Made by a program: the position numbers and the translations under genes | Shown here: piece after piece, positions 12,224-57,863 of the stretch | How positions within the stretch are numbered: position 1 is the first letter of the stretch | Layout: each line of letters opens with the position of its first letter | Notes under the pieces: generated by a model | Seen by the model: the letters and a program-made list of their open reading frames with translations, nothing else | What the model was told of the DNA's origin: nothing | Databases searched by the model: none | Assembly (NCBI GenBank): GCA_035556555.1 | Contig: DATMES010000022.1 | Location: 7,577 to 71,576 of the forward strand | DNA: 64,000 bases | Reading direction: 5' to 3' | DNA from: Frankiaceae bacterium | GTDB lineage: Bacteria; Actinomycetota; Actinomycetes; BP-191

Positions 12224-12436
12224 CTAGCAGAAGACCGTTGTCCACATCGAGCCGCCCCAGCACAGGGGCGCCTCGACGGTGACGGGCGTGCAGCCGCCTT
12301 CCGGCCGCGGGACGCAGTCCTGGTAGAGCACGACGTTGCGGTAGCAGGCCTCGGGGGCCACGCACTCGGCGTGCGCGGCGCCGCCGAGGAACACCGCGGA
12401 CAGCAGGGCGCCGACAGCGAGCAGGCGTCTGACCAT
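12224..12436 (-). CDS. Small secreted cysteine-rich peptide (70 aa precursor; 47-aa mature peptide with 6 Cys)
   Basis: Signal peptide MVRRLLAVGALLSAVFLGGAAHA|E; GGAG RBS; GC3 near 100%. Confidence 0.45.
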   Translation of the reverse strand: MVRRLLAVGALLSAVFLGGAAHAECVAPEACYRNVVLYQDCVPRPEGGCTPVTVEAPLCWGGSMWTTVFC

Positions 12437-23805: not shown

Positions 23806-24405
23806 CTACGGGAAGAGACGGTCGTTGGTCTCCATGCAGTCCGTCGGCTCCTGGATCGCGACAGCGAGCGCGAACTCGACCGGGCACGCGGCGACGTCGA
23901 AGTAGCCCCAGTCGGCCCCGCCGTCACGCCAGACCTCGAGCACCGGGAGCGTGCTCGGGCCCACGTTTCCCTCGAGGAACTGGATGCTCATCGTGGTGGT
24001 GCCGGTCTTGACGCAGACAGCACTGGCCGCGAGCCCGATCGAGATCTGGACGGGTACCGGGTCGGCGACCGTGGCGAGCACGGTGGGGCAGAGCGACGCG
24101 TCGTCGTCGACGTCCACGTCGGGCAGCGTGCCGCCGGACGCGACGTCCGCGATGATCGTGAGGCCCCCGAGCGGGACCTGTACCCACGTCCACCGGACGC
24201 AGACGACGGTGCGGGTCGAGCTCTGGCTGTCGATCCAGACGCGGTCGTCGGGCTGCTCGTTGAGGCCACCAGTGAAGAGCCTGGTGGACTCCGTCGCGCG
24301 GCAGTCGTCGGACGTGGCGGCGACGGCCGTGCTGGCCGGCAGCAACGTCGTGGTCAGGACGGCGGTGGCTGCCACGGCAGCACAGCGCAGGATTGCCTTT
24401 CGCAT
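23806..24405 (-). CDS. Secreted hypothetical protein (199 aa, 6 Cys)
   Basis: AAGGGGG RBS; signal peptide MRKAILRCAAVAATAVLTTTLLPASTAVAA. Confidence 0.5.
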   Translation of the reverse strand: MRKAILRCAAVAATAVLTTTLLPASTAVAATSDDCRATESTRLFTGGLNEQPDDRVWIDSQSSTRTVVCVRWTWVQVPLGGLTIIADVASGGTLPDVDVDDDASLCPTVLATVADPVPVQISIGLAASAVCVKTGTTTMSIQFLEGNVGPSTLPVLEVWRDGGADWGYFDVAACPVEFALAVAIQEPTDCMETNDRLFP

Positions 24406-24628
24406 GGTTCCCCCTTCTGGGTGTGAGATTCCCCCGAAACGGGACGAACCGTACGGGGGACCTCACTACGGTGTACAGGTTTGCTTGCCGATGAAGTACG
24501 GAAATGTGCGAAAGTAGTCAGCCCCGCCGCGAAATGGGTGATATCTCACCCGAATGGGCGCGGGTCGCGAATTCCGCCTCGCCTGGACGGCGGGGCGCCC
24601 GCCGCTCGGCGTCGTCTAGCCTGAGCGT

Positions 24629-26839
<2,211 letters not shown>

Positions 26840-39709: not shown

Positions 39710-40552
39710 GTGACGCGTTCCATGCCTTTCGCAGCCGCGACTGCAGTCGTCGGCGCGGCTTTGCTGGTGGCAGTTTCGACCCCCGCCGACGCCCAGACGC
39801 CGGAGGTGACCGTATCGTCATGCGCAGCCGAGAACTCGATGGCGCATGCAGGTACGAACGTTGGATGGACGTGCGTCGAAGTCAATGTCATGGAACTCCT
39901 GCAGAGCGACCCCCTGGAAACTCCGGTTCCGGTTCCTGATCCGTTCGCAACACTCGTCGACGACGCCGAGGAGTCCGCTGACTTCGCGACCGACGAGTTG
40001 TGGAACACCGCCACCGACAATCGGGTTTACCTCGACCCGGCCAACGACGTGGACGGTGGCTGCTCGATACAAACCGACTACTGCTACCGCTCCGACATCT
40101 ACCAGTGGCGCATGGACGGCACGCTCTGGTATGGCATCGGTGAGCGGACGATCGGCAAGATCCGTCAGCAGGGACGCATCTCGTTGAACGGCCGGCAGTC
40201 GAACTTCCTGTGGTCGGCGGACCCTATCGAGGGTCCCGCGATCGACTCGATCCTCGATACGTTCTGTACAGACGGCAACGGATGGCGTAGCAGCACCTCG
40301 TGCGGGCGCAATACGGTGAAGTCGTTTGGGTATACGACCAGTTTGATCAGCATGGCGCCGTCCTATTATCACAGTGACGACAGCGACTACTACGGCCGGT
40401 TCCGCCTCATGTTCAAGTCTCAGGGAAACCCGAATCCCTCGGATCAGAGTGGTCAAGGATACTTCTACGCACCGGTGATCACGAGCCAGTACTTCGACTG
40501 CGACGACGACTTCCGCGAATCGGCCAAGTGCCGGTTCCGCGAAGCGAGCTGA
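39710..40552 (+). CDS. Secreted cysteine-rich protein (280 aa) encoded in a low-GC islet
   Basis: Signal peptide ending ADAQT; at least 10 Cys; local GC about 58-60% versus about 72% in the flanks. Confidence 0.55.
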   Translation: MTRSMPFAAATAVVGAALLVAVSTPADAQTPEVTVSSCAAENSMAHAGTNVGWTCVEVNVMELLQSDPLETPVPVPDPFATLVDDAEESADFATDELWNTATDNRVYLDPANDVDGGCSIQTDYCYRSDIYQWRMDGTLWYGIGERTIGKIRQQGRISLNGRQSNFLWSADPIEGPAIDSILDTFCTDGNGWRSSTSCGRNTVKSFGYTTSLISMAPSYYHSDDSDYYGRFRLMFKSQGNPNPSDQSGQGYFYAPVITSQYFDCDDDFRESAKCRFREAS

Positions 40553-40554
40553 CG

Positions 40555-40857
40555 ATGACCGGTGCGGACCGGGTCGTGTACATAGCCGAGCGACTCGCCG
40601 AGGACGCTCACCTCGGGTGGCCTGCTACGACGCGACTCTACGGCCACTGCGAGAAGCGGCAGCCCCTGCCGAGAGTCGTCGAGGCTGGCCCGGGTTGGGA
40701 CAGTGCCGAGGACGCGATCGAGTGGGCCCGAGCCCGCGCGGCCGTCGTCATGCTTCGACTTGGCTCGACAGTTCCACAGGTGACCTACTCCGCCGGATCG
40801 GTCCATCCCGACCAGGATCTGCCGCTGTGGCCCGCCTCCGTGAGGGAGCAACAGTAG
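40555..40857 (+). CDS. Small cytoplasmic hypothetical protein (100 aa), downstream partner of the secreted protein
   Basis: ATG 3 nt after the upstream stop; GC about 64%. Confidence 0.4.
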   Translation: MTGADRVVYIAERLAEDAHLGWPATTRLYGHCEKRQPLPRVVEAGPGWDSAEDAIEWARARAAVVMLRLGSTVPQVTYSAGSVHPDQDLPLWPASVREQQ

Positions 40858-40999
40858 GTCTGCTGGAGAAGCGTTGTCCCTTGCGACGTAGCGCGCGGTG
40901 GCGCTCCGGCGCGTGGCACGACCTGGTGACGTACTCGCGGCTGCGGGGCGACTGAGCGTACGGTCTGCCGGTCACGCCCCCTACACCGGAGGAACCCCT

Positions 41000-41242
41000 A
41001 TGCGCCTGCGCCTCCTCGCGGCCGGCCTCGCCGCCGCCGCGTCGCTCGCCGTGCCTGCCGCGGCAGACCCGCTGTACTTCGAGCGCGAGTGCTCGGGGCC
41101 GGTCGACGCGGCCTGCTACCACGACTTCTGCGGGATCTACGACTGCATCAGGTCCGACTGCCTCGCGTACACCGGGCTGCTCGGCGAGGGCAACGCCGGC
41201 CTCTGCGTCGGCAAGGCGCGCCCGCGCGACCCCATCTCATAG
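41000..41242 (+). CDS. Small secreted cysteine-rich peptide (80 aa precursor; mature peptide with 6 Cys)
   Basis: GGAGGA RBS 7 nt before the ATG; signal peptide MRLRLLAAGLAAAASLAVPAAA|DPLY. Confidence 0.5.
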   Translation: MRLRLLAAGLAAAASLAVPAAADPLYFERECSGPVDAACYHDFCGIYDCIRSDCLAYTGLLGEGNAGLCVGKARPRDPIS

Positions 41243-41329
41243 GGGGCCTGTGGACGGCGGTCTCGGCGCCGTCCACAGATTGCGCCCGGCTGGTGGTCTC
41301 CGGGCTCGCGCGTCCCTAGCGTCGTACGG

Positions 41330-41770
41330 GTGGGACAGCCAGCCGGCCTCGACGTCGTCGAGGGGACCGTACGCCGCGAGCTCGACGCGCAGGAACGCCG
41401 CGTCGACGCGGCGGACTCCCACGCGCGCCTCGTCATGGCGACCGCCGGCGTCTTCGTGACCCTGGCCGACGGCGGCTGGCTACCGCTGCTGCTGACGTCG
41501 CGGCTGATGGCGGGGCTCGCCGCACTGGCGGCGTTGGTGGCCCTCGCACCCAGTACGCGCGCGGCATTCGACGCGCGCGTACTGGGCGGGTACCTCGACG
41601 CCGACCCGGCCGACGTGCGTCTGGAGCTGCTGGCCGGCGACATCCGGGCGTCCGACCGCCTGGAGGCGCGTCTGACGGTCAAGGTGGCGCGTCTGCGCCT
41701 CGCGTCCAGGCTGATCATGGCGTCGGTGGCGTTCGCCACGCTCGCCGCTATCGTCGACGGTGTGACGTGA
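41330..41770 (+). CDS. Small membrane protein (146 aa; 2-3 TM after an N-terminal helical segment)
   Basis: GTG start; hydrophobic helices; no recognisable domain. Confidence 0.4.
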   Translation: MGQPAGLDVVEGTVRRELDAQERRVDAADSHARLVMATAGVFVTLADGGWLPLLLTSRLMAGLAALAALVALAPSTRAAFDARVLGGYLDADPADVRLELLAGDIRASDRLEARLTVKVARLRLASRLIMASVAFATLAAIVDGVT

Positions 41771-48869: not shown

Positions 48870-49529
48870 TCAGAACAGCCGCAGGCCGCTCGGCTCGTAG
48901 CCGCGCAGCTCGTCGTAGTCCACCGTCACGCAGCTCAAGCCCCTGTCGGCCGCGAGCACCTTCGCTTGCGGCTTGATCTCCTGCGCCGCGAAGACGCCCC
49001 GCACCGGCGCGAGCAACGGGTCGCGGCCCAGCAGCTCGACGTAGCGCGTCAGCTGCTCCACCCCGTCGATCTCGCCGCGCCGCTTCACCTCGACCGCGAC
49101 GCAACCGCCCTCGGGGTCCCGGAACAGGATGTCGACGGGCCCGATCGCGGTCGGGTACTCGCGGCGTACGAGCGTCAGGCCCTCGCCGAAGCACTCCGGG
49201 TGGTCGGCCAGCAGCTCCTGCAGGTGCGCCTCGACGCCGTCCTTGACCAGCCCCGGGTCGAGCCCGAGCTCGTGGGTGAGGTCGTGCAGCACCTCCTCGA
49301 TGGAGATGACGAGCTGCTCGCCGGTCTTGTTGGTCACCCGCCAGACTCCGGGCGCCTCCTCGAGGAAGCACGGCGGGCTCATCCAGTTCAGCGGCTTGTA
49401 CGCCCTGTCGTCGGCGTGCACCGACACGCTGCCGTCGGCCTTGACCAGCAGCAGGCGGGTGGCCGTGGGCAGGTGCGCGGTCAGCCGGCCGACGTAGTCG
49501 ACCGAGCACTTCGCGATGACGAGCCGCAC
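48870..49529 (-). CDS. nucS: Endonuclease NucS (EndoMS mismatch-specific endonuclease)
   Basis: Colinear NucS, including the catalytic region DILFRD...VEVKRRGE. Confidence 0.9.
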
Positions 49530-49623
49530 GCCCGGACGATACTTCCCCCTTGCCGTCCGCGAGGCAGCGGGCCCTCGGCCGTTCCTCGATGTGTCAGGTC
49601 ACCCCTACGCCGAGGGGTCACTC

Positions 49624-49785
49624 ATGAGCAAGGTTCTCCTCGCTGGTGTCGTCGCCGCGCTGGCCCTCGTGCCGGCGTCCGCGCACGCCGACCCCCTCCC
49701 CGCCGCGTGCGTCGTCGTGACGCCGGCGCACGTCCAGGCCGGCTACGCGCCGAACGGGCCGAGCGACTGCGTCGTCCTGGCGTAG
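49624..49785 (+). CDS. Small secreted peptide (53 aa precursor; 31-aa mature peptide with 2 Cys)
   Basis: GAGGGG RBS; signal peptide MSKVLLAGVVAALALVPASAHA|DPLP; high GC3. Confidence 0.4.
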   Translation: MSKVLLAGVVAALALVPASAHADPLPAACVVVTPAHVQAGYAPNGPSDCVVLA

Positions 49786-49794
49786 CAGCGCGCC

Positions 49795-51783
49795 TTACGC
49801 CGCGAGCTGCGGCGGCAGCGGCTCGTCGTGGACCACCGTGAGAGACGTGACGGCGCGGGTGAGGACGACGTAGAGCCTTCTGAGCCCGCGCGGCTCGGCC
49901 GCGGCGATGGCGGCGGGCTCGACGACGACCACGTGGTCGTACTCCAGGCCCTTCGCCAGCGTCGCCGGCACCAGCTCGACGCGGACGTCGTGCGCCTCGG
50001 TGTCGGCGCCGAGCAGCCGCGCCTCGACCTGGGCAGCGGCCAGCGCGGCGTGGAGGGCAGGCGCGGCGGCGTCGGCGACGATGACGCCGACCGAGCCCTC
50101 CCGCTGGAGAGCCGCGGTCACGGCTGACACGGGGTCTCCGCTCGTGAGGGCGAGCGAGCCGGCGCCGCGGCGTACGGAGGTCGCGGGGTCCACCCCGGCC
50201 GCGATCGTCGGGAGCAGCCGGTTGGCGAAGTCGAGGACCTCCTGCGGTACGCGGTAGCCGCGGGTCAGCGCCTGCACGCGGCCGTCGGGCTTGCCGAGGT
50301 GGGCGAGCGTCGTATGCCAGTCCCCCGTCGCCCACGGCGTCGTGCCCTGGGCGACGTCGCCGAGCAGCGTCGCGGAGCCGGTCGAGCAGCGGCGGCCCAC
50401 CGCGCGGCACTGCATCGGGGAGAGGTCCTGCGCCTCGTCGAGGATGACGTGGCCGTAGCTGGGGGTGCGTTCCAGCAGGTCCGCGACCTCGTCGGCGAGG
50501 AACGCGTCCGCCCGCGTCCACGGCGCGCTCCTCGGGCTCCGGGGCGTCTCCCGCCAGAGCAGCGCGGCCTGCTCGTCGCCGGTGAGGACGCCGTCGGCGG
50601 CCTTGGCCAGGGTGGTCGCGTCGGTGAACAGCGCGTACAGCAGGCCCGCGGGGTCCGTCGCCGGCCAGTGCTCGTCGACGTACGCCCGCACGTCGGGGCT
50701 GCCCGCGATCCGCTGCACCGCGCCGTCCGTCGGCGTCGAGCCCTCCGCCTCGAGCTCGCGGCGGACGTGCTCGGCGACGTGGGTACGGAGGCGCTCGCGC
50801 GCGGTGGCGTACCGGACGTCGGCCTGGAGCAGGTCGCGCACCAGCCCGCGCAGTACCTCGGTGTCGAGGCGCCGTCTCCGGCCGCCGGCCTCCAGGACGA
50901 GAGGCGTGGCGGGGCGGCGGATGCGGGCGTACAGCGCCTTCTTCAGCACCGCCGCCATCCGCGCGTCGCCCTTCAGCGTCGCGACGTCCGGGGGCTCCGT
51001 GGCTTTGACCGGAACGGCGGTGGCGAGGTCGTCGACCGTCTGCTGCGTGACGTCGATCTCGCCGAGCGCGGGGAGGACGTCGCCGATGTAGGAGAGGAAC
51101 GCCTTGTTCGGGCCGAGGATGAGCACGCCGCCGCGGCGGAGGCGGTCGCGGTAGGTGTAGAGCAGGTACGCCGCGCGGTGCAGGCCCACCGCGGTCTTGC
51201 CGGTGCCGGGGGCACCCTGGACGCAGATCGTCTCGGCGAGGTCGGCGCGGACCAGCTCGTCCTGGTCGGGCTGGATCGTGGCGACGATGTCGCGCATCGG
51301 GCCGACGCGGGGACGTTCGATCTCCTCGGTGAGGATGCGGCTGGTGATGCCGAGCGCCTCGCCGCGGGTCAGCGCCTCGTCCTCGAAGGACGTCAGAACG
51401 CCGTGCGAGAAGCCGAAGCGGCGGCGGCGTTCGACGCCCATCGGCTCCAGCGCCGTAGCCCGGTAGAACGGCAGCGCGATCGGCGCGCGCCAGTCGACGA
51501 CCATCGGGTCGCCGCGGGTGTCGAGGATGTGCCGGCGGCCGATGTGGAACGTCTCGTCGGTATCCGCCTGGTCGACGCGGCCGAAGAACAGCGGCGTCGT
51601 ACCGTCGTCGACCAGGGCCTTGAGGCGCTGTGCGCGCGCCTTGCCGAGCGCCTCGGACGCCAGCGCGTCGACGGCGAAGTCGCCGATGGCCTCCGCGCGC
51701 TCGCGCATGTGCCGCAGGGCGGTACGGCTGGCGGCCATGTGCGCGCGCTCGGCGTCGAGCTCGGCGCGGACGTCCGTCGTCAT
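49795..51783 (-). CDS. helD: HelD-family (UvrD-like, RNA polymerase-associated) helicase
   Basis: Walker A GAPGTGKT; N-terminal HelD-specific domain; DEAQD motif. Confidence 0.85.
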   Translation of the reverse strand: MTTDVRAELDAERAHMAASRTALRHMRERAEAIGDFAVDALASEALGKARAQRLKALVDDGTTPLFFGRVDQADTDETFHIGRRHILDTRGDPMVVDWRAPIALPFYRATALEPMGVERRRRFGFSHGVLTSFEDEALTRGEALGITSRILTEEIERPRVGPMRDIVATIQPDQDELVRADLAETICVQGAPGTGKTAVGLHRAAYLLYTYRDRLRRGGVLILGPNKAFLSYIGDVLPALGEIDVTQQTVDDLATAVPVKATEPPDVATLKGDARMAAVLKKALYARIRRPATPLVLEAGGRRRRLDTEVLRGLVRDLLQADVRYATARERLRTHVAEHVRRELEAEGSTPTDGAVQRIAGSPDVRAYVDEHWPATDPAGLLYALFTDATTLAKAADGVLTGDEQAALLWRETPRSPRSAPWTRADAFLADEVADLLERTPSYGHVILDEAQDLSPMQCRAVGRRCSTGSATLLGDVAQGTTPWATGDWHTTLAHLGKPDGRVQALTRGYRVPQEVLDFANRLLPTIAAGVDPATSVRRGAGSLALTSGDPVSAVTAALQREGSVGVIVADAAAPALHAALAAAQVEARLLGADTEAHDVRVELVPATLAKGLEYDHVVVVEPAAIAAAEPRGLRRLYVVLTRAVTSLTVVHDEPLPPQLAA

Positions 51784-51903
51784 CGTGTCCCCGGGTCGCG
51801 GTGGGTGCCCACTGCCCTCGACCGTACGGCCTGGCTCGACGGGGCGCGGGTGTTCCGCGCGAGCGGGGGAGGCTACTGGCCTTCCGCTTCCCGCGCCAGC
51901 GGT

Positions 51904-52203
51904 TCAGGCCCCGAGCATCCGCGCCTCGACGGCGAGGTACTCGGCGGCGGCGCGCTCGTACAGCGCCTCGAAGTCCGGTCCGAGCCGATGCGCGCGCCGC
52001 CCGAACCGCAGGCGTACGACGCTCCCGCAGAGCAGCCGCGCCAGCCGCCACGGCACGCCCGGGTCGAAGTGGTCGGCCTCGTCCACGAAGACCACGACCT
52101 CGGCGCCGCGCGGCACGTCCACCACCGCGAGGTCGACGTCCCACTCGGTCAGCAGCCCGTCGCCGCGTACCGGGTCGAGGCGGACCTCGTACTCGGCGCT
52201 CAC
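51904..52203 (-). CDS. Hypothetical protein (about 100 aa) located immediately downstream of dnaB
   Basis: GTGA overlap with the dnaB stop; high GC3. Confidence 0.45.
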   Translation of the reverse strand: MSAEYEVRLDPVRGDGLLTEWDVDLAVVDVPRGAEVVVFVDEADHFDPGVPWRLARLLCGSVVRLRFGRRAHRLGPDFEALYERAAAEYLAVEARMLGA

Positions 52204-54791
52204 CCTGCGGGAGTCATGTCGATGAAGCGGGAGTAGTGGCCCTGGAACGCCACCGTGATCGTGCCCGTGGGGCCGTTGCGGTGCTTGGCGACGATGAAGT
52301 CGGCCTCGCCGGCGCGGGGCGACTCCTTCTCGAACGCATCCTCGCGGTACAGCAGGATCACCATGTCGGCGTCCTGCTCCAGCGAGCCCGACTCGCGCAG
52401 GTCGGACAGCTGCGGCTTCTTGTCGGTGCGGGACTCGGGGCCGCGGTTCAGCTGGCTGATCGCGACGACGGGGACCTCGAGCTCCTTGGCCAGCAGCTTC
52501 ATGGACCGGGAGATCTCGGAGACCTCCTGCTGTCGGTTCTCGACCTTGCGCGGCGAGCTCATGAGCTGCATGTAGTCGACGACGATCAGCTCGAGGTTCT
52601 GCCGCTGCTTGAGCCGCCGCGCCTTGGCGCGGATCTCCATCATCGTGAGGTTGGGGCTGTCGTCGATGAACAGCGGCGCGTTGGCGACCTCGCCCATCCG
52701 GCGCGCCAGCCGCGACCAGTCGTCGTCGGTCATGCGGCCGGTGCGCATGTTCTGCAGCGAGACCCGCGCCTCGGCGGAGAGCAGGCGCATGGTGATCTCG
52801 TGCTTGCTCATTTCGAGCGAGAAGATCACTGAGGTCTTGCCTGCCTTGATCGACGCCGCGCGGGAGAAGTCGAGCCCCAGCGTGGAGTTGTGCGTCGGGA
52901 TCATCGAACGCGTCGCGAGGTAGAGGTGCTCGTCGTTGCCGACCTCGACGCAACGCACGGGAACGCTCGGGATCGGTCGCACCGCGACGATGAGCCGCGA
53001 CCGGTTGCGCGCGTCGCCCTTGGCGCCGCGCCGGTCCTTGTGCACGAGCCGCTTGCGCTCCAGGCGGAACACGTCGTCGGAGGTCGTGAAGTTGAGGATG
53101 TACGCGATCGACGACTCCGGCGTACGGCCCCGCACGGCCTTGGTACACACCGAGACGCGATAGCCGAGGCTGGTGACGAGCTCGCGGACGTCCTCGGCCA
53201 GCCGGCGCGACGTGACGCAGAACTGCAGCTGCCCCCTCGGCGTCACGGTGCCGTCAGTGTCCATGAGCCCGGCGAGCAGCGCGCGCCGCTGTGCCTCCGA
53301 CGCGCGGAGGTACGCGGCCGGGATGTGCTTGGCACCGAGGACGCCGAGCGTGCGCAGGATGCCCTGCACGGTGCCGTGCGCGTCGTGGCACTCCTGGCAG
53401 CGCAGCAGACCGGTGGACGGACGGCCGCAGTCGGGGCAGGTCGGCGCGGGGACGGGAGCGGACACGAAGCGGGCACGGCCGCCGCAGGACTGCCCGCAGG
53501 TGCGGACGTGGGCGAGCGGGTTGACGAACTCGGTGCCGCAGACGGCGCAGGCGCGCGGCGCGGGCGGCGGCGGCTCGGGGAGCCGGATCGTGAACGTCAG
53601 GCCGTTCGACGCGCTCGGAACGACGCGGTATCCCTCGTCCTCCAGGTACAGCACCATCTCCGGATCGGCCGTCGTGATGCGCGCGGCGGCGGAGTGGCCG
53701 TCGCCGAGCCAGGCACCGAGGACGTACGGCGACAGGGGCAGGACGGCGGCGGGCAGGTCGAGCGGGGCGGCGTTGGGGACGGAGTGGTTGAGGCGCCGGT
53801 CCGCCGTCTCGCAGCGCAGGGTCGCGGCGATCTCCGCCGTGGTCCTGACCGAAGCCACAGCACGGCCGCTCGACCGTCGTGACGCGCGGGTGTCGGTGAG
53901 CCACTGGTGCTCGGCGTCGGCGACGACGACGGTGCCGTCGGCGAACTCCACCTCGTAGCACGACCGATCGGTCATGACCTCGGTCGCCGCGACGACGGGC
54001 GTCGGACGGCCCGAACGGTCGAGCAGCAGGTCGCCGACCGCGACCTCGCCCATCGTCGTCCACCCCGTGGGCGTGGGCAGCGGGGTGTCGAGCGCCAGCG
54101 CCTTGCCGATGGCGGGACGCGCGGCGACGATGACGAGCTGGCCGGGGTGGAGGCCGTTGGTCAGGGCGTCGAGGTCCTTGAAGCCCGTGGGAACGCCGTG
54201 CAGGTCGCCGTCGCGGGAACCGATCGCCTCGATCTCGTCCAGCGTCGGCTGCAGCAGGTCCTCGAGGCGGATGTAGTCCTCGGACGTACGCCGCTCGGTG
54301 ACGTCGAAGATCGCCTGCTGCGCCCGGTCGACGATGTCGTCGACCTCGCCGCCGCGGCCGCCGTAGCCGAGCTGGACGATCCGGGTGCCGGCCTCGACGA
54401 GGCGGCGCAGGATCGCCTGCTCGGCGACGATCTTGGCGTAGTAGCCGGCGCTGGCGGCGGTGGGGACGGCGGACGCGAGGTCGATGAGGTACGTCGCCCC
54501 GCCGATCCGCCCGATCTCCCCCGTGCGGGTGAGCTCGGCGGCGACGGTGATCTGGTCGACGGGCTCGCCGCGGCCGTAGAGGTCGACGGCGGCCTCGTAG
54601 ATGACCTGGTGCGCGGGCCGGTAGAAGTCGCCGGGGCGGAGCACCTCGACGACGTCGGCGATGGCGTCCTTGGACAGCAGCATCCCGCCGAGCACGCTCT
54701 GCTCGGCCTCGATGTTCTGCGGCGGCGTGCGGTCGAACTCACGATGCTCGACGGGCGGCGCTGCGCGCTGCGGGAACTCGACTGCGGTCAC
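52200..54791 (-). CDS. dnaB: Replicative DNA helicase DnaB, interrupted by an intein in the Walker A motif
   Basis: N-terminus aligns with actinobacterial DnaB (QNIEAEQSVLGGMLLSKDAIADV); Walker A is split as AARPAIGK|[intein]|STLGLDF. Confidence 0.9.
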   Translation of the reverse strand: MTAVEFPQRAAPPVEHREFDRTPPQNIEAEQSVLGGMLLSKDAIADVVEVLRPGDFYRPAHQVIYEAAVDLYGRGEPVDQITVAAELTRTGEIGRIGGATYLIDLASAVPTAASAGYYAKIVAEQAILRRLVEAGTRIVQLGYGGRGGEVDDIVDRAQQAIFDVTERRTSEDYIRLEDLLQPTLDEIEAIGSRDGDLHGVPTGFKDLDALTNGLHPGQLVIVAARPAIGKALALDTPLPTPTGWTTMGEVAVGDLLLDRSGRPTPVVAATEVMTDRSCYEVEFADGTVVVADAEHQWLTDTRASRRSSGRAVASVRTTAEIAATLRCETADRRLNHSVPNAAPLDLPAAVLPLSPYVLGAWLGDGHSAAARITTADPEMVLYLEDEGYRVVPSASNGLTFTIRLPEPPPPAPRACAVCGTEFVNPLAHVRTCGQSCGGRARFVSAPVPAPTCPDCGRPSTGLLRCQECHDAHGTVQGILRTLGVLGAKHIPAAYLRASEAQRRALLAGLMDTDGTVTPRGQLQFCVTSRRLAEDVRELVTSLGYRVSVCTKAVRGRTPESSIAYILNFTTSDDVFRLERKRLVHKDRRGAKGDARNRSRLIVAVRPIPSVPVRCVEVGNDEHLYLATRSMIPTHNSTLGLDFSRAASIKAGKTSVIFSLEMSKHEITMRLLSAEARVSLQNMRTGRMTDDDWSRLARRMGEVANAPLFIDDSPNLTMMEIRAKARRLKQRQNLELIVVDYMQLMSSPRKVENRQQEVSEISRSMKLLAKELEVPVVAISQLNRGPESRTDKKPQLSDLRESGSLEQDADMVILLYREDAFEKESPRAGEADFIVAKHRNGPTGTITVAFQGHYSRFIDMTPAG
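52887..54101 (-). mobile_element. DnaB P-loop intein, class 3-like (N-terminal Ala, internal Trp and Cys, C-terminal THN) with a LAGLIDADG homing endonuclease domain and a Cys-rich insert
   Basis: Begins ALALDTP and ends SMIPTHN, followed by extein Ser; LGAWLGDGH and LLAGLMDTDG motifs; block F VRCVEV; boundaries are approximate. Confidence 0.8.
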
Positions 54792-55197
54792 TCGGGCGGA
54801 TCCGTTTCGGGTGGGTGAGCCGAGCATCGGAGGGGGGTGTGACAGAAAGTTATCCACAGGTAGTGAACAGGCTGTGGATGGGGGCTCGGGGCCAAAGGGG
54901 ACGCTAGGCGACCAGCCGACGCGACGTAACCCACGCACCCGAACCCGCCCTGTGCACAGCCGGTGAACGTCGCGGCGTGGCGTTGTGGACGGGCTGGGGA
55001 CGAACGCGGGGAACGACCGCCGCTGAGCACGAATCCGTCCACACGGGGTGTGCGCAAAGAAACGTGCGGGGTGTGTGGAACGCCGGTCGCGCACTCGCGC
55101 GTGTCGCCTTACCTAACGCGCCTCACCCGGTGCGGAGACGCCGAACGGCCCGGTGCCGCGCGGGCGCGGGCCGGGCCGTTCGGTGGATAACCAACTG
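54792..55197. promoter_or_regulatory. rplI-dnaB intergenic region with a cluster of DnaA-box-like 9-mers and the dnaB 5' leader
   Basis: TTATCCACA (54850-54858), TGTGGATGG, TTGTGGACG, CGTCCACAC, GTGGATAAC (55183-55191), plus the palindrome TGTGCACA. Confidence 0.4.
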
Positions 55198-55644
55198 CTA
55201 CTGCGCGACTACCTCGATGGAGATGGTCGCGTCGACCTCGGGGTGGACCTTGACGGTCACCGAGTGGGTGCCGAGCGCCTTGATGGGCGCGTTGAGCACG
55301 ACGCGGCGCTTGTCGAGCTTCGGCCCGCCGGCGCGGGTCACCGCCTCGACGACGTCGCCGGCGGTCACCGAGCCGAACAGCCGGCCTCCCTCGCCGGCGC
55401 GGGCCGGCAGGGTGACGGTCAGCGCGCCGAGCTCGGAGGCCATCGTCTTGGCCGAGCCGAGGTCACGGACCTCGCGCACCTCGCGAGCGCGGCGGATCGC
55501 CGCGATCTGCTTCTCGGCGCCCTTGGTCGCGAGCATCGCCTTGCCCTGCGGGAGCAGGTAGTTGCGGCCGAACCCGTCCGCGACCTCGACCATGTCGCCG
55601 GGGCCACCGAGGCCGGTGACCTCCTGCTTGAGGATGAGCTTCAT
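55198..55644 (-). CDS. rplI: 50S ribosomal protein L9
   Basis: [13 protein letters not shown]; colinear L9. Confidence 0.95.
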
Positions 55645-55653
55645 CGCCGCCCC

Positions 55654-55890
55654 CTACCGCGCGGTGCTGGTGTAGGGCAGCAGCGCCATCTCACGGCTGT
55701 TCTTGACGGCCGTGGCGACGTCGCGCTGGTGCTGCGAGCAGTTGCCGCTGACGCGGCGGGCGCGGATCTTGCCGCGGTCGGAGATGAACTTCCGCAGCAG
55801 GCCCGTGTCCTTGTAGTCGACGTAGGTGATCTTGTCCTTGCAGAAGACGCAGACCTTCTTCTTCGGCTTCCGCGCCGGAGGCTTAGCCAT
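55654..55890 (-). CDS. rpsR: 30S ribosomal protein S18
   Basis: 78 aa; [10 protein letters not shown]...[20 protein letters not shown]. Confidence 0.9.
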
Positions 55891-55924
55891 GTCTTTAGGG
55901 TCTCTTTCGTGTTCGGGGAAGTAG

Positions 55925-56401
55925 CTAGAAAGGGGGCTCGTCGGTCGCCGCGCCCACCCGCGCGGGAGCCGGGCTGCCCCACGGGTCGTCCGCGGGAGCG
56001 CCGCCGCCGAAGCCGCCGCCGCCACCCGCGCCGGAGCGCTGGACCTTGTTGACCTTGGCGGTGGCGTACTTGAGGGAGGGGCCGATCTCGTCGACCTCGA
56101 CCTCGTAGACCGTGCGCTTCTCGCCTTCCTTGGTCTCGTACGACCGCTGCTTGAGCCGCCCGGAGACGATGACGCGCGCGCCGCGGGTGAGCGACTCGGC
56201 GACGTTCTCCGCCGCCTGGCGCCAGATCGAGCAGCGCAGGAACAGCGCGTCGCCGTCCTTCCACTCGTTGGTCGTCTTGTCGAGGAACCGCGGGGTGGAC
56301 GCGACGGTGAAGTTGGCGACGGCCGCGCCGTTCGGCGTGTACCGCAGCTCGGGGTCGTCGGTGAGGTTGCCGATGATCGTGATGGTCGTGTCGCCTGCCA
56401 T
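55925..56401 (-). CDS. ssb: Single-stranded DNA-binding protein
   Basis: OB fold ([27 protein letters not shown]); Gly-rich tail ending DEPPF. Confidence 0.95.
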
Positions 56402-56486
56402 GTGCGTTCGCCCTTCCGCGAGCGGGACTGACTACGGGTGACTGCCGCGGGCGCGGGAGCCGGTGTGGGGAAGGGAGGTGCCGGTC

Positions 56487-56777
56487 CTAGTGCATGTCCG
56501 GACGCAGGACCTTGGTGCGCATGACGGCCTCGGAGAGGTTGAGCTGACGGTCCAGCTCCTTCACCGTGGCGGGTTCGGCAACGAGGTCGACGACCGCGTA
56601 GATGCCTTCCCAGCGCTTCTGGATCTCGTACGACAGCCGGCGGCGACCCCAGATGTCGACCTTCTCGACCGTGCCGCCGCCGTCACGGATGACGCCGAGG
56701 AACTGGTCGAGCTGCGGTCCTACCGACTTCTCTTCGAGGTCGGGGTTCAGGATCACCATGAGCTCGTAGTGACGCAT
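56487..56777 (-). CDS. rpsF: 30S ribosomal protein S6
   Basis: [16 protein letters not shown]; colinear S6. Confidence 0.95.
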
Positions 56778-56921
56778 GGAAGTGCCTCACCTCCTGTGGG
56801 CTAGGCGGCCACGGTCTCTCCGTGGCAGGAGGGCATTCGCGTCAACGAATCCACGGAACGGTAGCAGACCACCTCCACCCGCTCGAACCGGACTCCCTTG
56901 CTTCCCTGCCCGACACGCTAG

Positions 56922-56988
56922 GACGGGGGTGTGACAGAAACGAGGGGGCGGCGCGGATCTGTGGACGGCGCGCCGACGATCTGTGGAC
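56922..56988. promoter_or_regulatory. rpsF-operon upstream region with the 16-mer GGGGGTGTGACAGAAA and two direct GATCTGTGGAC (DnaA-box-like) repeats
   Basis: Exact 16-mer also found at 54833-54848; direct repeats at 56955-56965 and 56978-56988. Confidence 0.4.
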
Positions 56989-57113
56989 AGCCGCGCGGCT
57001 AGTGGCGCTCCGGGCGGCGGTGGTCGTTCTGTGCAGCCGGTACGCCGGTCTCGAGCGTGTTGATCTTCACAGAACGGGCAGCGGGCGCGGCGGGGCAGGG
57101 ATGCACCCCGCGG

Positions 57114-57863
57114 CTACGGCGACGGCGGGGCGCTGGCGAGCAGCGCGCGCAGCTCGGCCGAGCCGACGCCGCCGATGAGCAGCAGCGCGAGCATGACCGG
57201 CAGGCCCTTCTCGCGGCCGGTGGCCGGCTGCGGCGTCAGCCCGCCCGCCCCGAGGAACGTCTCCTTCGGCGTCTCGGGGTCCGGCGCGACGCTGGGCAGC
57301 AGCGGCGTCGAGGTCGCCGACGGCGGCGCCACGGAGCCGCTGGGGATGGCCGGGGACGCGGTGCCCGAGGACGGGGTCGGCGACGGCGTCTCCGACACGG
57401 TCTCCGACGGGCGCGGCGAGGAGGTCGCGGTCCGCGTGGTCGTCGGGCGCGGCGACGACGTCCTGGTCTTCGTCGGCGACGGCTTGACCGTCCCCTCGAC
57501 GATGACGGTGCCCTTCATGCCGACGTCCTCGTGCGTGGTGCAGACGTAGCGGTACGTCCCCGCGCGCGAGAACGTCGCCTCCGTCGTGAAGTTCAGCAGC
57601 GCGGGCGGGCCGACGGGGTCGCTCTTGTCCCAGTTGGCGCTGGACGACGTGACGTTGTGACCCGAGCCACCGGCGTACTGCCACGTCACGGTGTCGCCGG
57701 GCTTGATGCGCACGGTCGCGGGGGTGAAGCGGTTCTCGTTGTTCTGGCCGACCGCGACCGTCTGGTCCTCCGCGGTGGCCGGCGTCATGAACGCGGGCAC
57801 GACGAGGAACGCCGACGCGCCGAGGGCGGCGACGGCGCGCAGGACGCGGAACGCGGGGCGCAC
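57114..57863 (-). CDS. Secreted/membrane-anchored cupredoxin (type-1 blue copper) protein with a PT-rich linker and C-terminal TM anchor
   Basis: Signal peptide; copper ligands GHNV...YVCTTHEDVGM (His, Cys, His, Met). Confidence 0.7.
   Translation of the reverse strand: MRPAFRVLRAVAALGASAFLVVPAFMTPATAEDQTVAVGQNNENRFTPATVRIKPGDTVTWQYAGGSGHNVTSSSANWDKSDPVGPPALLNFTTEATFSRAGTYRYVCTTHEDVGMKGTVIVEGTVKPSPTKTRTSSPRPTTTRTATSSPRPSETVSETPSPTPSSGTASPAIPSGSVAPPSATSTPLLPSVAPDPETPKETFLGAGGLTPQPATGREKGLPVMLALLLIGGVGSAELRALLASAPPSP

Follow-up and report, generated by a model that had tools for sequence, protein, structure and literature searches.

Why should DnaA boxes crowd together directly in front of the gene for the replicative helicase? 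The question is raised by the intergenic region between rplI and dnaB in a stretch of 64,000 nucleotides from a Frankiaceae bacterium (in the following termed the window; GC content 72%), for which a preliminary description had proposed either DnaA-dependent transcriptional control of dnaB or a DnaA-titrating locus resembling datA of E. coli. Our analysis identifies the box cluster as real, conserved and biologically meaningful. The spacer is the positional counterpart and orthologue of the mycobacterial dnaB-rplI (Rv0057) DnaA-binding region, i.e. a known element in a new example. We regard it as rather probable that it acts as a multi-input regulatory region dominated by DnaA boxes, through which DnaA controls the transcription of dnaB.

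The rplI-dnaB spacer and its DnaA boxes

On the minus strand, the genes rpsF, ssb, rpsR and rplI are followed by a gap of 406 bp (54792-55197) and then by dnaB. The rplI gene (55198-55644, minus), which closes the rpsF-ssb-rpsR-rplI run, encodes ribosomal protein L9 in an ORF of 148 aa. The replicative helicase gene dnaB (52200-54791, minus; Pfam DnaB, DnaB_C and LAGLIDADG_3) starts with a GTG at 54791. The same start is kept in the nearest relative, L001, and the DnaB N-terminus is 89% identical to that from an uncultured Frankiaceae genome. DnaB carries an intein of 405 aa (aa 231-635; 52887-54101, minus), which sits in the P-loop after ...ARPAIGK, has Ala at its start, ends with ...THN before the following S and contains a LAGLIDADG homing-endonuclease domain plus a Cys-rich stretch. 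Around dnaB lie ribosomal protein genes, ssb, an aldehyde dehydrogenase gene and, directly 3' of dnaB (48870-51903, minus), genes for a UvrD-like helicase and for the mismatch endonuclease NucS. The latter two form a small DNA-metabolism gene neighbourhood with ssb and dnaB.

In each of the six frames, first, second and third codon positions of the gap alike have a GC content of about 0.69, compared with a GC3 of 0.97 for rplI. Since codon-position GC is flat in every frame, we consider the gap non-coding. A hidden small gene, comparable to the annotated Rv0057 of Mycobacterium tuberculosis (Mtb), is ruled out, with codon-position GC bias in none of the six frames. A perfect inverted repeat of 13 nt right after the rplI stop codon forms a hairpin (55141-55183, minus) that is probably the rplI terminator and lacks a U-tract. 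Its RNA fold has an energy of -40 kcal/mol (z = -3.4). The hairpin was caught by repeat and folding tools and, being without a T-run, was not called by a scan for T-run terminators. Rfam yielded no match across 54300-57300, even at E = 1.

Searching with the box consensus TT[AG]TCCACA and allowing up to two mismatches, we found nine of the 85 matches in the window inside the 406-bp gap, while about 1.1 would be expected from 2000 dinucleotide shuffles of the gap. None of the 2000 shuffles attained nine matches and every other 400-bp stretch of the window contains three at most, which bears out the earlier remark that the density of boxes is unusual. The core hexamer TCCACA occurs 19 times in the window and five of these copies reside in the gap (0.12 expected). 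The preliminary description had further suggested scoring the region with a weight matrix of the species' own oriC boxes, and its proposal would have been refuted by a score no better than that of random intergenic DNA. By the published mycobacterial DnaA-box matrix (PWM), which may differ from the host's own box preference, the gap stands far above the rest of the window, with 12 of 94 matches at a score of at least 11 (0.58 expected) and six of 16 at a score of at least 13 (0.1 expected), an outcome that does not refute the proposal. Altogether, seven to nine box-like sites are present per 406 bp, outside oriC.

Chance clustering is ruled out by the shuffles together with the conservation of the cluster across 80 species (see below). 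A second or relic replication origin would have the box cluster itself in its favor and nothing else. An AT-rich unwinding tract is lacking: among stretches of 30 nt, the GC content drops to its minimum of 40% just once, at the TTATCCACA box, and is 53-93% in the rest of the gap. Neither dnaA, dnaN nor oriC was found within the 64-kb window, and the mycobacterial oriC lies elsewhere (PMC7738170). We thus regard accumulation of words by chance, or an origin, as an extremely improbable explanation for the cluster.

Two further stretches that seemed box-rich, 40150-40700 and 24300-24850, were rejected because they merely contain low-scoring matches in DNA of lower GC content. The former has a GC content of 61.5% as compared to 72% and adjoins short ORFs (40892-41770) without Pfam match. 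The only other perfect actinobacterial box of the window, TTGTCCACA at 12238-12246, is isolated and located in the 3' end of a small ORF for a signal-peptide-like, Cys-rich protein of 70 aa (12224-12436, minus), which is flanked by a Fic-domain gene and purD. This box probably arose by chance.

All six 9-mers that had been listed for the gap are present at the coordinates given. Those at 55183-55191 and 55074-55081 are doubtful as boxes, the first being weak and the second having three mismatches. Two were given one base off the best register, the better reading being CCGTCCACA at both 54984-54992 (minus) and 55035-55043 (plus). Absent from the list were the box-like sites TCGTCCCCA (54995-55003), TTGCGCACA (55049-55057) and the weak CTGTTCACT (54862-54870), all on the minus strand.

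Closest to dnaB, TTATCCACA at 54850-54858 (plus, antisense to dnaB) had been described as a perfect DnaA box, and it is indeed the sole perfect one among those listed, with a PWM score of 15.0 out of a maximum of 15.2. Its counterpart in L001 reads TCATCCACA. It forms the right arm of an inverted pair, the left arm of which, CCATCCACA at 54873-54881 (minus; PWM 13.8), lies downstream of a -10-like hexamer. Here, L001 has TTGTCCACA with the same 14-nt spacer to the partner box. The weak CTGTTCACT box (PWM 11.1) follows 11 bp beyond the left arm. The inverted pair is present before the dnaB start as noted earlier, but it is a lineage-specific trait, common only to the window and L001.

The same pair can also be read at the RNA level, where ATCCACAG-N12-CTGTGGAT in the 5' leader of dnaB would form a hairpin that affects stability or translation and would not constitute DnaA sites. 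The leader does fold with this 8-bp stem, and L001 retains an 8-bp stem with altered flanks (CACAG/CUGUG replaced by CACAAC/GUUGUG). However, the folding energy of the leader is no better than that of shuffled sequences (z = -0.28), Rfam is without a match, each arm scores high as a DnaA box (15.0 and 13.8) and the pair occurs in two sequences only, which is too few for covariation. A leader hairpin in place of DnaA sites therefore appears very unlikely.

Farther upstream of dnaB, CTGTGCACAG at 54950-54959 is a palindrome that represents a DnaA-box variant on both strands (PWM 13.9 each). It includes the palindrome TGTGCACA (54951-54958) that had been pointed out before. L001 has TTGTGCACA at this place, and TGCACA as well as CTGTGCAC are enriched 5' of dnaB in relatives. 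CACAG-N4-GTGAAC occurs in two copies at a distance of 100 bp (54855-54968), one following the perfect box and the other the palindrome.

The next two boxes form a head-to-tail pair with a distance of 11 bp. The first is TCGTCCCCA at 54995-55003 (minus), a CCCCA variant, for which L001 has TTGTCCACA; in relatives, TTGTCCCCA ranks with the top-enriched 8/9-mers 5' of dnaB. The second is the CCGTCCACA box at 54984-54992 (minus; PWM 13.6), four of the nine positions of which are kept in L001, while other relatives carry GTCCACA or GTGCACA there. This pair and the weaker one made up of 54873-54881 and 54862-54870 are the 11-bp pairs of the window.

The box-like CCGTCCACA at 55035-55043 (plus, antisense to dnaB; PWM 13.6; eight of nine positions kept in L001) converges with TTGCGCACA at 55049-55057 (minus, dnaB sense; two mismatches, PWM 13.0; seven of nine kept), the spacer between them being 5 nt. 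TTCCACACA at 55072-55080 (minus; PWM 11.6; eight of nine kept in L001) is ambiguous and may be either a weak DnaA box or else the second WhiA-type repeat in degenerate form. It lies 28 bp after the first WhiA-type motif and is a 14-nt direct repeat of the site at 55044-55057. The earlier TGTGGAAC (55074-55081) has three mismatches, and relatives have a second WhiA-type repeat in its place. The sequence TT(G/C)C(G/A)CACACCCCG occurs twice in the flanks of boxes at 55044-55080, with a distance of 23 bp. Finally, the weak 9-mer TTATCCACC at 55182-55190 (minus; PWM 10.7) overlaps the stem of the rplI terminator. Its one mismatch concerns the heavily weighted last A, and L001 keeps four of the nine positions. 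It is probably non-functional as a box.

Conservation of the box array upstream of dnaB

The conservation check that had been suggested for relatives was performed on 80 loci retrieved around homologues of the DnaB N-terminus. These stem from Frankiales/Acidothermales, Geodermatophilales, Pseudonocardiales, Streptosporangiales, Mycobacteriales and unplaced MAGs; Streptomyces is not among them. A box cluster resides at the same position upstream of dnaB and was found in all five named orders, Mycobacteriales included. The 80 loci contain 258 near-perfect boxes between -500 and -100 of dnaB, and bins outside this peak almost all contain 0-3 boxes per 100 bp. The exceptions include 13 boxes at about -1500, each of them a lone site without neighbors. 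In Streptosporangiales, TCGTCCACA is found about 1.5 kb upstream of dnaB and was set aside as a single conserved site per locus that does not form a cluster.

De novo word enrichment in the relatives yielded (G)TT[AG]TCC[AC]CAG(G), which we take to be the actinobacterial DnaA box including its known CCCCA variant. Boxes in the relatives are mostly arranged head-to-tail and 304 of 336 are on the sense strand of dnaB. This bias in orientation could reflect the direction of replication instead of that of transcription, dnaB usually being co-oriented with the fork. The commonest spacing between boxes is 11 bp (64 cases), followed by 12 bp (30 cases), with further peaks at about 44, 55 and 65 bp; with such spacings, the boxes lie on one face of the helix. 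In the lineages nearest to the window, most boxes are degenerate at their first two or three positions, and the median number of boxes with one mismatch at most is 1-3.5. When the spacer is aligned with that of L001, 57% of the positions are identical overall, 77% inside the features listed here and 51% outside.

By tblastn, rplI was found upstream of dnaB in 45 of the 80 relatives. Among the 35 loci without rplI as the upstream neighbor, 31 still have at least three boxes. As the boxes persist where the upstream gene differs, the cluster is tied to dnaB.

Putative promoter elements and WhiA-type motifs in the spacer

The hexamer TAGCGT at 54901-54906 (minus), located upstream of the inverted pair and identical in L001, resembles a -10 element. 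Among the relatives, TA[AG]CGT is present in 41 copies between -500 and 0 in 39 loci and in a single copy elsewhere within +/-1500 bp. The distance from the last strong box to this hexamer is 31, 42-43, 53-54, 64, 75-76 or 87-88 bp and hence follows the same 11-bp register as the boxes themselves. From this arrangement we infer that TAGCGT is the putative -10 element of a distal dnaB promoter. A scan for sigma-70 consensus promoters returned nothing, such a scan being blind to promoters of this kind here.

A second promoter motif may lie closer to dnaB. The RecA-independent DNA-damage promoter, RecA-NDp, has the consensus tTGTCRgtg-N8-TAnnnT. As read from the sequence, CTGTCACAC-N8-GATGCT at 54823-54845 (minus) resembles this PafBC-type promoter and would be the proximal one of dnaB; its -10 part is imperfect, as the first base of GATGCT departs from the consensus. 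The strict RecA-NDp pattern is present in just three to six relatives. Upstream of rpsF, CTGTCACAC-N8-TAGCGT (56937-56915, minus) fits in full, and the 16-nt sequence TTTCTGTCACACCCCC precedes both dnaB (54828-54848) and rpsF-ssb (56921-56940). This is suggestive of a DNA-damage (PafBC-type) promoter element shared by the genes for the helicase and for SSB. In Mtb, dnaB and ssb have been reported to be PafBC-linked. Two box-like sites also precede rpsF, CCGTCCACAGAT at 56960-56968 and CTGTCCACAGAT at 56982-56990 (both minus, 22 bp apart), and the stretch 56915-56990 is the second most box-rich of the window. L001 retains one box and the RecA-NDp-like motif at this place, and nine of about 40 relatives have one box in the region from about -100 to -215 relative to rpsF.

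At the other end of the array, GACACGCG at 55098-55105 (minus) matches the WhiA/WhiB2-type motif GACACGCC at seven of eight positions, and L001 has a perfect GACACGCC in the aligned column. This is the one recognizable WhiA-type motif in the window; a degenerate second copy overlaps TGTGGAAC. In the relatives, CGACACGCCG(A) was recovered de novo just upstream of the box array. It is confined to -600 to -300 and usually present as two direct repeats that are 26-27 bp apart. Streptosporangiales have one copy of the motif, in inverted orientation. It was found 5' of dnaB in all nine Mycobacteriales, 26 of 28 Pseudonocardiales, four of five Geodermatophilales, seven of 20 Streptosporangiales and two of six members of the Frankiales group. 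The dnaB promoter of Mtb is bound by WhiA and WhiB2 and activated by both in vitro (PMC13473873). It shares the GACACGCC-type motif upstream of dnaB with the window, which differs by its 7/8 match and the degenerate state of its second copy. The DnaA boxes situated between the WhiA sites and dnaB are left aside in that study (PMC13473873). In a 2026 paper, WhiA/WhiB2 control of replication genes is said to appear unique to mycobacteria; the extension of WhiA-type sites beyond this group is modestly new.

Probable DnaA-dependent control of dnaB versus a possible sink for DnaA

DnaA sites have been mapped in Mtb by IDAP-seq and in M. smegmatis by ChIP-seq (Hicks et al., 2020; PMC7738170). When purified Mtb DnaA was used, the top site of the genome was located between the two genes, 309-334 nt after rplI and 195-220 nt before dnaB, with an enrichment of 35-45-fold compared to 8-15-fold at oriC (PMC7738170). 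In M. smegmatis, the top ChIP-seq peak is likewise dnaB-rplI (225-fold versus 44-fold at oriC; PMC7738170). The DnaA variant I282T binds about three-fold more weakly at the dnaB-rplI site and uniquely under-expresses dnaB (PMC7738170). The site was remarked on by Hicks et al. without being dissected (PMC7738170). DnaA binding, and lower dnaB expression with a binding-defective DnaA, have thus been shown by others and only in mycobacteria, and the evidence for activation is a correlation observed with one allele.

The window resembles the mycobacterial Rv0057 region in its place, the mycobacterial peak being 200-300 bp upstream of dnaB, and in the type of box. In the mycobacterial loci among our 80, the array recurs together with the GACACGCC repeats. 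The window differs in that its boxes are more degenerate at their 5' ends, that it adds the inverted pair, common only to L001, and that it has just one recognizable WhiA-type motif. The proposal that DnaA binds here gains support by analogy, as the orthologous spacer is the most strongly DnaA-bound region in Mtb and M. smegmatis, and from the box cluster being conserved at this place in the 80 relatives.

Such strong binding is also what would be expected of a primary sink or inactivation locus for DnaA that restrains re-initiation, as in datA, the B. subtilis clusters or D78, with the adjacency to dnaB being incidental or secondary. Points in its favor are the occupancy by DnaA, which exceeds that of oriC in M. 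smegmatis (225- versus 44-fold) and in Mtb in vitro, the many boxes and their helically phased head-to-tail arrays, of a kind that supports DnaA oligomers. Five to ten boxes with an occupancy above that of oriC exceed what a simple promoter switch needs and fit a role as a sink. So does the position of the orthologous locus, which in M. smegmatis lies about 47 kb from oriC (Table S9 coordinates combined with the genome length). In Mtb, the distance is about 60 kb (PMC7738170), and for Bacillus and Streptomyces, a negative regulatory role has been ascribed to clusters near oriC. On the other side, the cluster accompanies dnaB even when the upstream gene is a different one, the boxes keep a fixed 11-bp register with the -10-like hexamer, and lower binding of DnaA goes along with lower dnaB expression in Mtb. 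A deletion phenotype for the rplI-dnaB locus, which would bear on this reading, was not found in the literature. This is the main alternative reading, and we consider a primary function as a sink possible, albeit doubtful.

Known clusters share single traits with the locus. In E. coli, datA is a DnaA-box cluster outside oriC that lowers the initiation potential, but it does not belong to the promoter of any replication gene. It acts via IHF-dependent hydrolysis of DnaA-bound ATP, and to our knowledge Actinobacteria are without an E. coli-type IHF, as they are without SeqA and Hda. The affinity of D78 from S. coelicolor for DnaA reportedly exceeds that of oriC. D78, H24 and H69 are actinobacterial DnaA-box clusters near oriC (Smulczyk-Krawczyszyn, 2006), and the literature cites a negative effect of D78 on replication. 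The oriC-proximal clusters of B. subtilis are likewise intergenic, situated outside oriC and stably bound by DnaA; some regulate their neighbors and jointly they restrain initiation (Ishikawa et al., 2007, PMC2533591; Okumura et al., 2012, PMC3245932). None of the six was reported upstream of a helicase gene (PMC2533591, PMC3245932). For Caulobacter crescentus, DnaA is reported to control dnaB, according to the citation given in PMC7738170, which makes it a similar case in a different phylum. The resemblance is to DnaA control of this gene; we know of no box array of such size at Caulobacter dnaB.

We favor DnaA-dependent control of dnaB because of the linkage to the gene, the register with the hexamer and the correlation seen with the Mtb mutant. 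DnaA would bind cooperatively to the boxes upstream of TAGCGT, which for the most part share one strand and are spaced by one turn of the helix, and in this Frankiaceae-like lineage also to the strong inverted pair between the hexamer and the start codon. The level of active initiator would thereby be passed on to the transcription of dnaB. Judging from M. tuberculosis, activation of dnaB is the most likely effect of the upstream array; at high DnaA, the downstream pair could have a braking effect. The WhiA/WhiB2-type site and the PafBC-type promoter motif may feed into the same spacer. A site of this strength would also retain a share of the cell's DnaA, which we see as a consequence and not as the primary role.

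A more far-reaching version is conceivable but, in our view, rather improbable: the array may correspond in Actinobacteria to datA and the Bacillus clusters and be the main chromosomal sink for DnaA and at the same time a hub for DnaA, WhiA/WhiB2 and PafBC. If so, an ancient, order-spanning and helically phased array would let these inputs converge on the supply of helicase, and the mycobacteria-only view of WhiA/WhiB2 control of replication genes would be too narrow.

For the window itself, the outcome is a gain in annotation and not a new biological principle; the comparative architecture is modestly new. It matters since the strongest DnaA site of mycobacteria is the rplI-dnaB spacer and not the origin. 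The geometry described here, head-to-tail boxes with one-turn spacing and a register with the hexamer, found with dnaB in at least five orders and flanked by WhiA-type repeats, is testable and can guide work on the coupling of initiation to helicase supply in Actinobacteria.
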